From contig CAKOJJ010000001.1 of NCBI GenBank assembly GCA_934089275.1, positions 180,296 through 244,295 on the forward strand: a stretch of 64,000 bases of DNA, written 5' to 3'. Source of the DNA: an uncultured Bacilli bacterium (lineage in GTDB: Bacteria; Bacillota_I; Bacilli_A; RF39; UBA660). Shown in pieces: positions 25,428-44,381 of the stretch. The translations under genes and the position numbers were made by a program. Position 1 is the first letter of the stretch; each line of letters begins with the position of its first letter. The notes below the pieces were generated by a model. The model worked only from the letters and a program-made list of their open reading frames with translations, did not search any database and was not told where the DNA came from.

Positions 25428-26642
25428 TTATTTTGTGCTGGCTTTTTCAGTTCTTGATAGTTTATTCAATTTTAACTTACAAACTAATGATTTTCCGACT
25501 ACACTTTTTATGCCTTGATTACTACTTTCTTGAGCTACTATCATCACTTTATCTGTCATAACATTTACCGGAGAAAATAATAAAGATATACGTGCAAATC
25601 CATCTCCTGTGCGTTGGCCACTTAGCATTGACCCATCTGATACACCGCCGACATATCCAGAGCCACCTCCGCCGCCACCGGCAATATAATATGATGCAGC
25701 TCCACCTCCGCCGCCATACCAGCCGCCTCCGCCGCCTCCGTGCATACGACTTCCAGATGCTCCGCCAGTGCCAAATCCTCCAGCTTTTCCATTTGCTTCA
25801 GTTCCTTGACCTGCTGTTCCACCACTTGTTTGAGTTCCTCCACCTGCAATAGTAAATTTACCACTACTAACAGAGTTTGTTCCTTGTCCTCCGGATTCAC
25901 CAGTTAATCCACCACCGGAACCACCATTAGTTGTTACATAATGATTTCCATCCCAACCAGCAGCGCCTCCACCGCCACCGGCGACAATCAAAACTTCTTC
26001 TTTATATGAACTATATTTTGATAGAATTCCACGGTTTGTTGTTGCTATATGTGTAGCGCCTCCACCGGAACCACCACGTCCTGCAGTGGCGTTAGCTGAA
26101 CTTGATCCTCCTCCATTATAACCTCCAGAAAGTGAACCACCATTCGTAGATTTTCCTACTCCACCTACCGCAATATAAAGGTTTGTAGATTTTAGTAATT
26201 CTTTATTTCCCACAGAATATCCACCAGATCCTCCAACACCATTATATGAGCCACCTTGTGCTCCCCATACTTCTAATTTGTATTTTCCCGAACGTGGCGC
26301 TGTAAAGGTTTGAACATTTCCAGTATATTCGTATGTCCATACTAAACTTTCTTCTGCTATTTTTTCGCATTCTAAGTAGGCTTCAACATCATATTCAGTT
26401 GAATCATTTACTATATCTACAGTTACATCTCCATTTACATCACTTATCGTAAATTCATCTTTTGCATCATTGATTCCAATTATTTCTGCATTATCTACTT
26501 TTAATGAAGATAAATATACTTTAAAATCGCTTATATTTTCTGATATTTTTCCTACACCATATATATTTACGGTTGTATTAAATGCTGCATATCCAATCAC
26601 CATAAACAAAACCACTATCAAAAGTATTGTCGATTTTTTCAT
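25428..26642 (-). CDS. secreted or membrane-anchored protein with a glycine-rich (Gly_rich/ALK-GRD-like) domain
   Basis: N-terminal signal/anchor. YEYTGNVQTFTAPRSGKYKLEVWGAQGGS...GGSGGYSVG...LYIAVGG matches the bacterial glycine-rich protein family pattern. The N-terminal ~95 aa are homologous to the DGR target 43512..44381. Confidence 0.75.
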   Translation of the reverse strand: MKKSTILLIVVLFMVIGYAAFNTTVNIYGVGKISENISDFKVYLSSLKVDNAEIIGINDAKDEFTISDVNGDVTVDIVNDSTEYDVEAYLECEKIAEESLVWTYEYTGNVQTFTAPRSGKYKLEVWGAQGGSYNGVGGSGGYSVGNKELLKSTNLYIAVGGVGKSTNGGSLSGGYNGGGSSSANATAGRGGSGGGATHIATTNRGILSKYSSYKEEVLIVAGGGGGAAGWDGNHYVTTNGGSGGGLTGESGGQGTNSVSSGKFTIAGGGTQTSGGTAGQGTEANGKAGGFGTGGASGSRMHGGGGGGWYGGGGGAASYYIAGGGGGGSGYVGGVSDGSMLSGQRTGDGFARISLLFSPVNVMTDKVMIVAQESSNQGIKSVVGKSLVCKLKLNKLSRTEKASTK

Positions 26643-41470: not shown

Positions 41471-42595
41471 TTACCAAGAAAAACTTTTATGATATAGATT
41501 TTTACAATTTCCATATTTTAACAATCCATTATAGCTTGATAACCATTTGTAAAATGTTTCCTTATCAATATAATTACTATTAACCAACAAAATTAAATTT
41601 TTAATTTTTCTTTTAAAGTTATATTTAACTCTAGTTCTTAATTTCATAATAATTTTATTGTTTTTAATAATAAATCTATAACCTAAAAAATCTATACCAT
41701 TTTTTATTCCATTAATCTTTGTTTTATTTATATTCAACTCTAATTTTAACTTATTAGTAAGATATTTTTCTATTTTCTCTAAACAATAATTCAAATATTT
41801 TTTATCTTCATGAATAATAACAAAATCATCCATATAATTAACTACATATTTTAAATGTAAATCTTCTTTTAAATAATGATTAAAATCACATAAATAAATT
41901 AAACCAAACGCTTGATATGTTTGATTACCAATACTACAACCTTTATTATATTTATATAAAGGTATTTCCTCAGTTTCTTTTATTAACTCCAAATTATCTA
42001 AATACTTAATTCGATTATTTTTTAATTTTTTTATACAATCATTTATATAAGCGGAATTGGTACTATCAATTATTCTATAAAGTACTTCTAAAGCATCTTT
42101 ATCTTTTATTTTTCTATTTAAAATACATTTTAAAACATCATGATCTATATTATAAAAATATTTTTTTATATCCAATTTTAAATAATAAAAATTACTATTC
42201 TTATATTTAATTTCATTTAAATATTTTTTTACAAGATTAATTCCATAACTAGACCCTTTATTAATTCTAGTTGCATACATAGAATTAGTATAAATATTTT
42301 CATATACATCAACTAATAAATATTTAGCTATTAAATGGTTAATTACTTTATCTTCTATACTTTGAGACATTATTACTCGAGATTTAGGATCTGTAATAAG
42401 AAATATATTATATCTAGAAAAATTTATATTTTTAGACATTAATTTATTTCTAATATTAATGATATGCTCTGTTTTATATAACATAAACTTTTCAGCTTTT
42501 TCTTTGTTTCTTACTTTAGAACATACTAAATCACACATTTTGCTAATATTATCTATATCATATACTTTATAATAAATATTAGATACTCTTTTCAT
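41471..42595 (-). CDS. DGR-type reverse transcriptase
   Basis: RT motifs SRVIMSQSIEDKVINHLI, ATRINKGSSYG, YLKLDIKKYFYNIDH, SIGNQTYQAF (the motif-4 position where DGR RTs carry [ILV]GxxxSQ), YMDDFVII and IDFLGYRF. 374 aa with no maturase or endonuclease domain. Confidence 0.9.
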   Translation of the reverse strand: MKRVSNIYYKVYDIDNISKMCDLVCSKVRNKEKAEKFMLYKTEHIINIRNKLMSKNINFSRYNIFLITDPKSRVIMSQSIEDKVINHLIAKYLLVDVYENIYTNSMYATRINKGSSYGINLVKKYLNEIKYKNSNFYYLKLDIKKYFYNIDHDVLKCILNRKIKDKDALEVLYRIIDSTNSAYINDCIKKLKNNRIKYLDNLELIKETEEIPLYKYNKGCSIGNQTYQAFGLIYLCDFNHYLKEDLHLKYVVNYMDDFVIIHEDKKYLNYCLEKIEKYLTNKLKLELNINKTKINGIKNGIDFLGYRFIIKNNKIIMKLRTRVKYNFKRKIKNLILLVNSNYIDKETFYKWLSSYNGLLKYGNCKNLYHKSFSW

Positions 42596-42974
42596 ATTTA
42601 AACCAACTTCTAACCATTAAATCTAGTTCAAGCAAATGAGTACTATAACTTTCAAACTTTTTATTAATAATTAAATCTTTTCTTAAAGCCTCTTCCAAAT
42701 AAAAATTCAACATTTGAATATTTACAACAATTTCTTTTTTATGATCTACTTCTTGAAATATATTAGCTCGATATATATTTTCTAATATAGAATAACTAGA
42801 TTCAATAATTCTAGTTTTTAACACTTTATAAGTATTTGGAAAACTCATTGTATTTCTTTCAATATATCTAATTGTTTTACGTGCTTGTTTTGCAATTAAA
42901 AACTTTTCATGAGGTTTATATTTATTATATAAATTATCTAATTTTTGTTTTTTCTTAATATTTACTTCTTCCAT
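42579..42974 (-). CDS. avd: Avd-like accessory variability determinant (four-helix-bundle, 23S rRNA IVS protein family)
   Basis: 131 aa, basic and helical (SYSILENIYRAN ... LELDLMVRSWF). Overlaps the RT start by 17 nt and lies immediately downstream of TR. Confidence 0.75.
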   Translation of the reverse strand: MEEVNIKKKQKLDNLYNKYKPHEKFLIAKQARKTIRYIERNTMSFPNTYKVLKTRIIESSYSILENIYRANIFQEVDHKKEIVVNIQMLNFYLEEALRKDLIINKKFESYSTHLLELDLMVRSWFKYEKSI

Positions 42975-43147
42975 AAGACATTTTTATAATAAAAAAAGCA
43001 GTAAGGATAGAAAACAAAGAAGTTCATGTTATTTACTACTAATCTAAGTTTTCATTTACTGCATATATTTTGTGTTTCCACACGGAATATTCTTATTTCC
43101 AAATCTCTAATTTAAAATATTACTAATTAAATAAAGTATATTGGAAG

Positions 43148-43302
43148 TTCAGGGAGACAGGACTAGTTGCAATTGACAGAACCAGAAGAGTTCACATTGC
43201 AGTTCTCATTAGTCGAGTTATCGTTGCAATTCACGTTGCCATTCGAATTAGCATTGCAGTTGAATGCATCAGAGTTGCAGTTGAAGTTAGAACTATTGTC
43301 AC
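43148..43302 (-). repeat. DGR template repeat (TR)
   Basis: Aligns without gaps to 43497..43651 (offset 349). In the coding sense, 18 of 45 aligned codons are AAC/AAT, and in that frame it reads ...NCNSDAFNCNANSNGNVNCNDNSTNENCNVNSSGSVNCN*. Confidence 0.9.
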
Positions 43303-43452
43303 CAAAGCTCCATTAAATTCAAAATACCCCAAAATTTTTATTATATTTCCTTTCTAATTTATTAATTTTTTTGAAATAGTTGATACCAACCATTTCAAAA
43401 CTTTAATGCCTACACTTTCGTTCGGCACTTTTTCGTCGCACTGCTCCTCAAC

Positions 43453-43496
43453 ATCTTTTGATAAATCAAAAGATAGATTTTAGATATTCAGATATC
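43453..43496 (-). promoter_or_regulatory. two hairpins immediately 3' of VR (candidate DGR target-recognition structure and/or terminator)
   Basis: gatat-tcag-atatc (43483..43496) abuts the TR/VR-shared 18-mer. atcttttgat-aa-atcaaaagat (43453..43474) is a perfect 10-bp inverted repeat. Neither has a counterpart next to TR. Confidence 0.45.
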
Positions 43497-43651
43497 TTCA
43501 GGGAGACAGGACTACGCGCAATAGACAGAACCAGAAGAGCGCACAATGCAGCTCTCATCAGCCGAGCGATCGTAGCAATACACGGCGCCATCCGAATAAG
43601 CATTGCAGCTGAATGCATCAGAGCTGCAGCCGAAGTTAGAACTATTGACAC
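43497..43651 (-). repeat. DGR variable repeat (VR), 3' end of the target gene
   Basis: 22 mismatches to TR, all where TR has A in the coding sense (T on the + strand), changed to C, G or T, plus one non-A mismatch at 43515. The first 18 nt (43497..43514, including the stop TAG) are identical to TR. Confidence 0.9.
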
Positions 43652-44381
43652 TACAAGCTGATTCTCCAAAATGATTTTTCAATGCTAAAACTGAATTGTC
43701 ATAATCATTCATTTTTATACAAAATAATCCATTATCATTTATACATACACCCGTTGCATTATTTAAATCTAGTCCTACAAAAACATTTTTACCTAATGTT
43801 GTATAATTTGTTGTACTTGATGTTGTTGGTGTTCCATATTCGAAATATGTTGGCATCCATGCTACAAATGTTGGTTTTGTTTCTCCTAATGTATCTCTTT
43901 CGACTGCATTGAATTCTAATTTACATATATATTCTTCACTTACTTCTTCTGTTGATGTTTTATCTAGTGTTATTGTTAATGTTCCATTTAATGTTTCTTT
44001 TGCTTTAACTATTGTTGCATCATTTTCCAGTTTATTTTTGATACTTGTATATTTTGCTGTTGTTCCTTCTTTTGGTACACATATTACACTTACTTCTGCA
44101 TCATAGTTACTTGAATTATTTGTTACTTCATATGTTAACACTGAAGTTTGATTAAGTGTCTTTAATTCACTTGTTTCAAAAGTAATTGTTTTCTTTGTAT
44201 CGTCTATTACTGAACTATATACATCCTTTCCATCTATACTTGCAGCTGTGAAGATTACACTGAAATCTTCATTGTTTTCGCTTACTTTTGCATTTCCATT
44301 TATTACTAATGTTGTTGATACTGCTGCAAAACCTATCGACATTAGTAATATTGCTACTATAAGCATACTTTTCTTCTTCAT
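43512..44381 (-). CDS. DGR variable (target) protein; secreted or membrane-anchored, with a C-terminal Cys-rich variable region
   Basis: N-terminal signal/anchor MKKKSMLIVAILLMSIGFAAVSTTL. The last 45 codons are the VR: VNSSNFGCSSDAFSCNAYSDGAVYCYDRSADESCIVRSSGSVYCA*. Confidence 0.9.
   Translation of the reverse strand: MKKKSMLIVAILLMSIGFAAVSTTLVINGNAKVSENNEDFSVIFTAASIDGKDVYSSVIDDTKKTITFETSELKTLNQTSVLTYEVTNNSSNYDAEVSVICVPKEGTTAKYTSIKNKLENDATIVKAKETLNGTLTITLDKTSTEEVSEEYICKLEFNAVERDTLGETKPTFVAWMPTYFEYGTPTTSSTTNYTTLGKNVFVGLDLNNATGVCINDNGLFCIKMNDYDNSVLALKNHFGESACSVNSSNFGCSSDAFSCNAYSDGAVYCYDRSADESCIVRSSGSVYCA

Follow-up and report, generated by a model that had tools for sequence, protein, structure and literature searches.

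A predicted eight-cysteine domain, apparently distinct from the C-type lectin fold, carries the variable region of a diversity-generating retroelement in gut Bacilli

A 64,000-nt stretch of the genome of an uncultured Bacilli bacterium (GTDB lineage RF39; UBA660; GenBank assembly GCA_934089275.1, contig CAKOJJ010000001.1, positions 180,296 to 244,295), hereafter termed the window, carries a complete diversity-generating retroelement (DGR) whose variable region forms the C-terminus of a 289-residue protein, within a domain built around a ladder of eight cysteines. We estimate at about 0.7 the probability of the following reading: the DGR is intact and diversifies the head of a surface adhesin or receptor, and this head is a domain other than a C-type lectin (CLec), a pre-existing module that the DGR recruited. 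The DGR itself is ordinary; the scaffold is the new part. To our knowledge, every DGR variable protein whose structure has been solved has the CLec fold, in which two helices are enclosed by paired N- and C-terminal strands, and in CLec targets such as Mtd and TvpA the variable residues occupy the ligand-binding site of that fold. The host of the DGR described here is an uncultured, small-genome, low-G+C member of the human-gut Bacilli.

Earlier surveys provide the frame into which such a scaffold has to be placed. Wu et al. 2018 (PMC5758913) sorted the variable regions of DGR targets into the classes CLec1-3, Ig1 and Ig2, plus unknown classes in genomes of the candidate phyla radiation (CPR). 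In the survey of Roux et al. 2021 (PMC8144416), annotated variable regions were systematically CLec and unassigned domains were considered probable new variants of that fold, while Ig1 and Ig2 were re-read as phage tail fibres with an uncharacterised, non-Ig variable domain (PC_00003, PC_00008). No description of the cysteine-ladder scaffold was found in the open-access literature, a search of the literature on DGRs in RF39, Mollicutes and Erysipelotrichales yielded nothing relevant, and the signature peptides of the ladder are absent from the supplement of Roux et al. 2021.

The retroelement is evident from a 155-nt direct repeat, the only such repeat pair across the window, whose two copies (43497-43651 and 43148-43302) are 85% identical and spaced 349 nt apart (see Table 1 for all features). 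The copies differ at 23 positions, 22 of which fall on adenines of the downstream copy (46 adenines in 155 nt; hypergeometric P=5e-13), and the downstream copy is thereby identified as the template repeat (TR) and the gene-internal copy as the variable region (VR). The lone mismatch elsewhere, at 43515 (C in the TR, G in the VR), is at the final base of the last codon, AAC in the TR and GCG in the VR, and may have arisen by simple point mutation of one copy or the other. The original prediction, which had been made from the nucleotide letters and their translations, gave the template as NSSNF-NCN-SDAF-NCN-ANSNGNV-NCN-DNSTNE-NCN-VNSSGSV-NCN-stop and the present VR as NSSNF-GCS-SDAF-SCN-AYSDGAV-YCY-DRSADES-CIV-RSSGSV-YCA-stop, and both readings were reproduced in the frame of the 289-codon open reading frame (ORF), together with the five TGC cysteine codons of the VR that it had described as flanked on both sides in the TR by AAY codons (Y, pyrimidine). 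Its estimate of about 18 variable positions equals the number of AAY codons, to which six further codons with one mutable adenine must be added, and the cysteine spacing of 7-10 residues that it had noted holds as well: successive gaps are 9, 7, 10, 9 and 10 residues when a sixth cysteine (C243) just upstream of the VR is counted. Its delimitation of the element stood in part only; the repeat at 43497-43651 is real, but that interval also takes in the stop codon and an 18-nt element that are not variable coding sequence, and variation begins one codon further upstream than claimed, at residue 245 (GAC to GTC, 43648). Over the predicted beta-strands, the template switches by turns between AAY codons and invariant, adenine-free codons for Cys, Val, Gly and Ser. 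No TR codon is mutable to a stop codon, and the theoretical repertoire amounts to 6e24 protein variants.

The remaining components of a DGR are present in the same order on the minus strand: within 41471-44381, the target gene is followed by the TR, the gene for the accessory protein Avd and the reverse transcriptase (RT) gene. The Avd ORF passes the gathering score of the Pfam family bAvd (4.7e-10; 40.4 bits vs a cut-off of 40) and matches the PHROG family 'Avd protein of DGR' (2.7e-13); its match to NCBIfam DivGenRetAVD (8.9e-10) lies under the curated cut-off of that model. The RT ORF matches Pfam RVT_1 and PHROG 1423 (8e-81) and aligns end to end with the RT of the Bordetella phage (bRT; BLASTP 4e-29); the YMDD motif is present, and the motif IGNQTYQ is aligned with IGSLTSQ of bRT, with S replaced by Y. 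Four marks by which a DGR is recognised are found here, namely an RT of the DGR clade, TR/VR differences that fall on adenines with the one exception given, an Avd gene and an initiation of mutagenic homing (IMH) element matched in the TR. By analogy with the Bordetella paradigm, RT and Avd would copy the TR transcript into cDNA with misincorporation opposite adenines, and the mutagenised cDNA would replace the last 45 codons of the adjacent 289-codon gene, up to the IMH.

The candidate for this IMH is the final 18 nt of the two repeat copies (TAGTCCTGTCTCCCTGAA), a G+C-rich stretch that is identical in the VR and TR copies, directly after which the flanks diverge, and which would mark the 3' end of homing. 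An element matching it also lies 3' of the stop codon in VR-type paralogues of other genomes. Unlike in BPP-1, there is no difference between IMH and IMH* within these 18 nt. Further downstream of the VR, and absent 3' of the TR, is a perfect 10-bp inverted repeat (43453-43474) that is kept at the corresponding place in seven related loci (L004, L005, L006, L008, L015, L016 and L083). With no T-run after it, it does not qualify as a canonical terminator; the hairpin or cruciform of a DGR target and a structure of the transcript end are both possible roles. In BPP-1 a hairpin or cruciform reportedly aids retrohoming, of which this repeat could be the counterpart. Both repeat copies also stand out in composition, with 41% G+C in the TR and 52% in the VR vs 28.5% for the window.

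The protein that carries the VR begins with a hydrophobic signal or anchor sequence (residues 1-25), continues with a beta-rich N-domain (~26-165) and a linker, and ends in the cysteine-ladder domain. At full length it has 2345 homologous clusters at 90% identity, all unnamed and none with a Pfam domain. When residues 160-289 were compared with 1.84 billion representatives, 186 clusters of the cysteine-ladder domain were recovered at 50% identity, in proteins of 84 to 1717 residues in which the matched region is nearly always at the extreme C-terminus. The N-termini to which it is fused include Listeria-Bacteroides (Flg_new) repeats with DUF6273, a type IV pilin N-methylation leader (N_methyl) and camelysin/TasA-like sequences. 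To judge from these fusions, the cysteine ladder is a portable C-terminal module of ~110 residues on exported proteins. Its eight cysteines (C213, C221, C243, C252, C259, C269, C278 and C288) are all kept in 71 of 78 diverse members, which are 29-70% identical to the window domain and constitute alignment A2; a second alignment, A1, comprises 106 close homologues of the target at 72-86% identity.

AlphaFold2 modelled the domain from alignment A2 with high confidence (predicted local distance difference test score, pLDDT, 97.6; predicted template modelling score, pTM, 0.89; all five models with pLDDT >97). The chain is predicted to begin with a short strand and a short helix, to continue with three strands, among them a C213/C221 hairpin, and a 12-residue helix, and to end in six short serial strands, which DSSP assigns to residues 243-246, 249-253, 257-262, 267-271, 276-280 and 286-288 (model numbering plus 173). 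Exactly one cysteine is held by each of these six strands. A model of the full-length protein, built from the 106 close homologues, was poor (pLDDT 61) and is not relied on, nor are its Foldseek matches (FimA and AP2 mu2; TM-score <0.3), which concern the N-domain only.

A further claim of the original prediction was that the VR sits on no obvious CLec or FGE fold and on no DGR target class described so far, and each search undertaken agrees with this. A confident profile or structure match of the C-terminal ~120 residues to a CLec or FGE fold was looked for in particular, and none emerged. Neither the 289-residue protein nor any of the 78 diverse domain members has a match in Pfam, FGE-sulfatase, DUF1566 and Fib_succ_major included; the cysteine-ladder domain has none in NCBIfam; profile searches of all PDB sequences returned nothing significant for it; and an hhalign comparison with Mtd of BPP-1 gave a probability of 0.4%. 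With the domain model as query, Foldseek found nothing at E<=1e-3 in the PDB (350,542 chains) or BFVD, and the 50 best matches listed from either contain no lectin, FGE, Mtd or Ig protein. The top PDB matches were polo-box domains (E 0.02-0.2, best 0.023; TM-score <=0.37; root-mean-square deviation 12-15 Å), which were rejected on their E-values (>=0.023) and deviations as reflecting at most a generic arrangement of a sheet plus a helix. Also set aside, as chance matches, were the PDB entry 3jx8 (E=1.8) and sub-threshold hits to the Pfam families RCC1_2, Paramecium_SA and OB_DEPS-1. The model and these searches support the view that the domain is an undescribed eight-cysteine module which is not a C-type lectin and would have no structural relative in the PDB.

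The predicted secondary structure, considered together with conservation, suggests how such a module may display its variation. Variable positions in the serial strands (246, 249, 251, 253, 258, 260, 262, 264, 266, 268, 270, 272, 275, 277, 279, 281, 287 and 289) follow an i/i+2 alternation out of phase with the cysteines, and conserved V245, F250, F257, A261, V267, V280 and V286 share the parity of the cysteines, opposite to that of the variable positions in every strand. From this opposite parity we infer two faces: cysteines and small hydrophobic residues would line the inner face of the sheet, packed against the helix, and 18-24 randomised side chains would cover the outer face, forming a single flat and continuous surface for ligand binding. 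Two of the hairpins, C259-x-A-x-S-D-G-x-V-x-C269 and C278-x-V-x-S-S-G-x-V-x-C288, have a three-residue turn as their centre of symmetry, an arrangement that would set their two cysteines, and likewise the A/V pair, directly opposite each other; the same cross-strand register would also work for C243/C252, C252/C259 and C269/C278. Disulfides that close the hairpins would be the most likely pairing, namely C213-C221, C243-C252, C259-C269 and C278-C288. A cysteine-lined inner face also fits the composition of the variable sites, at which cysteine is ~16-fold depleted (0.4% vs ~7% expected from a fitted independent-base model) and proline is rarer than the independent-base model predicts (0.5% vs 2.1%). 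The disulfide stapling or metal binding proposed in the original prediction is likewise consistent with near-invariant cysteines and a depletion of extra ones. The hydrophobic N-terminus and the Flg_new/DUF6273, N_methyl pilin and camelysin-like fusion partners argue for an extracellular role, and the protein would most likely serve at the surface as an adhesin or a receptor head, with a specificity that the DGR redraws.

Natural variation within the family bears the pattern that adenine-directed mutagenesis would leave. Among the 106 close homologues, codons whose first or second base is an adenine have a mean column entropy of 2.88 bits, compared with 0.58 bits at VR codons with no mutable adenine and 0.40 bits over residues 1-245, and at the 18 AAY positions the 15 amino acids that NNY codons can encode make up 97% of residues. 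We take the entropy difference and the NNY bias as population-level evidence of past diversification. Residues K, E, Q, M and W account for 7.2% of AAY-equivalent positions in the distant members, vs 16.2% elsewhere, and 28 of 77 members have none of them there, a depletion which suggests that a substantial fraction of these proteins are, or were, diversified.

The domain also occurs in copies that bear no signature of a DGR. Copies of the DGR type (those of the window, L001, L004, L078, L083 and L085) have a last 135 nt of 46-53% G+C in genomes of 27-34% G+C, cysteine codons that are mostly TGC, and a G+C-rich, IMH-like element 3' of the stop codon. Other copies (L009, L012, L014, L079, L080 and L081) end in an A+T-rich 3' part with cysteine mostly encoded by TGT, and have neither an IMH nor a second, TR-like copy in the locus; tblastn detected no RT or Avd homologue in the fetched DNA around L009, L012 and L014, and no RVT_1 or bAvd gene lies within 8 kb of L079-L081. 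In this clade, 3'-end G+C enrichment together with the preference for TGC over TGT separates copies of the DGR type from the others. The existence of copies without a DGR signature suggests that the scaffold is older than its recruitment, and the DGR would accordingly appear to have captured an existing binding module.

Several observations weigh against the reading proposed at the outset, some of them concerning activity and others the role of the cysteines. With respect to activity, cassettes in related genomes are often decayed. VR-plus-IMH copies lack RT, Avd and TR in the fetched flanks of L001 and L005-L008 (5 kb) and of L085 (4 kb). In a group of VR::TR hybrids (L002, L003, L011, L013 and L084), the VR runs into the spacer downstream of the TR and both Avd and RT are gone; the VR of L084 has, moreover, returned to a TR-like N-C-N sequence over its 3' half. 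L004 has the window's flank downstream of RT in common but no TR, Avd or RT, in L015 an internal deletion has removed Avd and the greater part of RT, and in L083, on a 1.35-Mb contig, RT is split into two ORFs. In addition, one close homologue (P0001) has an identical VR despite 4 substitutions elsewhere, and near-identical VRs occur within 90%-identity clusters (P0092, P0273-P0276) alongside up to ~20 N-terminal differences. A shared VR with a differing N-terminal part is the reverse of what is expected of an active DGR, and suggests either frozen VRs or recombination of N-domains among paralogues. The decay in related genomes, and VRs common to alleles that differ elsewhere, are what one would see if the cassette were a relic in which the VR differences are old, homing has ceased and the target has become an ordinary paralogous surface-protein gene. 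This is unlikely, while being the strongest of the alternatives: in the window, RT and Avd are full-length ORFs with the catalytic YMDD in place, the 18-nt IMH is perfect in TR and VR, and one mismatch only falls outside adenines, a combination which argues for recent function. Diversification looks episodic, and one cassette may serve several paralogues in trans. The possibility of a relic bears on activity only and leaves the scaffold finding unaffected.

With respect to the cysteines, the strand pairing, the two faces and the S-S distances are deduced from predicted secondary structure and conservation parity, disulfides are not a given in the exported proteins of a strict gut anaerobe, and C269 is replaced in 5 of the 78 distant and 3 of the 106 close members, so that one cysteine would be left unpaired. 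The row of cysteines might instead bind metal, or stay reduced as packing of the core, in which case the scaffold would be held by metal or by hydrophobic contacts alone. In favour of this, extracytoplasmic oxidative folding is uncertain in an anaerobic gut host whose genome measures ~1.35 Mb, some members tolerate the single loss of C269, and a depletion of extra cysteines is expected equally for a metal site. Against this, the domain has no motifs of the CxxC or CxH type, its cysteines being 7-10 residues apart and one per strand; the symmetry of C-x-(A/V)-x-S-(D/N)-G-x-V-x-C would set cysteines across a hairpin in the geometry of cross-strand disulfides; and the protein carries an export signal. 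We regard a metal-bound or reduced ladder as a shade more doubtful than a relic cassette, and disulfide-closed hairpins as the preferred reading. That the domain is a highly divergent variant of the CLec fold, as the record of solved DGR proteins, the default adopted by Roux et al. 2021 (PMC8144416) for uncharacterised VR domains and the typical CLec-target features of a ~110-residue size and a C-terminal VR might lead one to expect, is very improbable, given that the confident model has another topology of one long helix followed by six short serial strands, that the best Foldseek matches listed include no CLec, FGE or Mtd entry and that no profile similarity connects the domain to FGE-sulfatase, DUF1566, Mtd or any PDB chain.

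With the non-CLec, eight-cysteine reading thus preferred, the present system can be compared with those already known. Like the CLec targets (Mtd; TvpA, of the FGE-sulfatase type; LdtA, of the DUF1566 type), it has its VR at the very C-terminal end of a protein that is exported or surface-located, an AAY-rich TR from which no stop codon can arise, invariant scaffold residues interleaved with variable ones, homologous RT and Avd machinery and a repertoire of similar or larger size. Unlike them, it resembles the CLec, FGE or DUF1566 fold neither in sequence or profile nor in predicted structure, and it has its variable residues in alternation on six successive beta-strands, arranged around a cysteine row.

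Ig1/Ig2 is the sole earlier DGR variable domain that, like the cysteine ladder, has no assignable CLec fold (PMC5758913; PMC8144416 supplement). In contrast to the domain described here, Ig1 and Ig2 are phage-encoded and their reference sequences (...AWYYWLRDAYAGS...GLRPACNL) have no cysteine ladder; this comparison is a partial one, made with the reference sequences as they are reproduced in the supplement of Roux et al. Within the compass of those sequences, nothing places the present domain in Ig1/Ig2: the references contain no ladder, no relative of the domain was found in 50,697 phage genomes (tblastn) or in IMG/VR at the sensitivity used, and the cassette has a housekeeping neighbourhood. 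As separate observations, DUF6273 lies directly upstream of the cysteine ladder in some proteins (P0122, P0123), and the 'Ig1' reference VR region (…WYYWLRDA…GLRPACNL) resembles DUF6273-type sequence by eye; if the Ig1 VR is of this type, two modules usable by DGRs would stand side by side in one protein family.

A parallel in setting is provided by the DGR-diversified Type V pilus adhesins of Bacteroides (bioRxiv 10.1101/2024.11.15.621889): in both cases a chromosomal DGR of a gut bacterium acts on the binding module at the distal end of a surface or fibre protein, and the present domain has relatives with pilin-like and camelysin/TasA-like N-termini. The two differ in phylum, and the weak FimA-like Foldseek matches obtained here come from the low-confidence full-length model. 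The VR fold of the Bacteroides adhesins is said to be CLec. By analogy only, the Paramecium surface antigen domain (PF01508), the variant-specific surface proteins (VSPs) of Giardia and the beetle antifreeze protein also combine regularly placed, invariant cysteines with hypervariable or repetitive exposed residues; variation in the Paramecium and Giardia antigens is, unlike here, due to gene switching and not to a retroelement. Membership in PF01508 was considered and rejected, as the match (14.2 bits vs a cut-off of 21.2; E=0.064; 2 of 78 members) falls below threshold.

Table 1. Components of the DGR cassette, with positions counted from the first nucleotide of the window
Feature	Position	Strand	Basis or remarks
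DGR target gene, 289 aa	43512..44381	(-)	ORF list; homologous clusters; AlphaFold2 secondary structure
Cysteine-ladder C-terminal domain, residues 176-289	43515..43856	(-)	Clusters, conserved Cys, AlphaFold2
Variable region proper (VR), codons 245-289	43515..43649	(-)	22 A-to-N differences vs TR
Stop codon and G+C-rich 18 nt same as TR (TAGTCCTGTCTCCCTGAA), candidate IMH	43497..43514	(-)	
Perfect 10-bp inverted repeat, 2-nt loop	43453..43474	no strand	22 nt downstream of IMH
Template repeat (TR), non-coding	43148..43302	(-)	Frame shut by stop codons just upstream
IMH* copy, 3' 18 nt of TR	43148-43165	(-)	
Avd accessory protein, 131 aa	42579..42974	(-)	Pfam bAvd, PHROG
DGR reverse transcriptase (RT), 374 aa, intact ORF, YMDD and IGNQTYQ motifs	41471..42595	(-)	

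The neighbours of the cassette are housekeeping genes (rpoB-like, a methyltransferase of the MTS family, that is, with a methyltransferase small domain, greA-like, PolC and RuvAB), which indicates that the DGR is chromosomal and not part of a prophage. At the DNA level, a search for the family gave 109 confirmed matches, from a handful of human-gut metagenome-assembled genomes (MAGs) labelled 'uncultured Bacilli' and from Firmicutes bacterium CAG:582, and one MAG holds at least 20 copies of paralogues of the target protein. Many of the paralogues (scan of L001-L075) share residues 1 to ~170 alone with the target, a distribution that suggests a common N-terminal module for anchoring or assembly with exchangeable C-terminal heads. 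The window itself encodes a 404-residue paralogue (25428-26642, minus strand) in which the leader and ~100 residues resemble those of the DGR target (33% identity, tblastn) and the head is a glycine-rich domain of the ALK/LTK type (PF12810, 2.3e-29); this head also matches several phage PHROGs of unknown function.

A further variation is seen in P0156 (L078, 708-1529), a protein of 273 residues and 37% identity with two tandem cysteine-ladder domains. At the DNA level, its internal and C-terminal ladders are 79% identical and both G+C-rich, with differences that cluster in AAY-equivalent codons, and they appear to be two VRs of one TR lying outside the DNA seen. The alternative that the first domain serves as a coding TR for the second was rejected, as mismatches between the copies are not adenine-specific.

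The exclusive record of CLec folds among solved proteins, together with the CLec default of the largest survey, has shaped the view that only this fold tolerates variation on the scale of a DGR. We judge the odds to be somewhat in favour of a second, structurally independent solution to DGR display: an eight-cysteine fold with no solved relative, presenting a flat variable face over a buried cysteine ladder (probably disulfides), captured as a C-terminal head in gut Bacilli and found in at least two divergent DGR lineages, one of them with tandem VRs. If true, an unrelated scaffold would mean that tolerance of DGR-scale variation is not unique to CLec and that DGRs are able to capture other binding modules. 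The family is abundant, in view of its full-length and domain clusters, and has clear signatures of selection. The domain would also have appeal as a scaffold for engineering, as the last 45 of its ~110 residues accept 6e24 variants at no risk of a stop codon, and this would be timely because, according to a recent preprint (bioRxiv 10.64898/2026.07.21.739853), DGRs are now being introduced into E. coli as a means of directed evolution. For the organisms themselves, the finding points to rapidly re-targetable adhesins in poorly known, uncultured gut Bacilli with reduced genomes.

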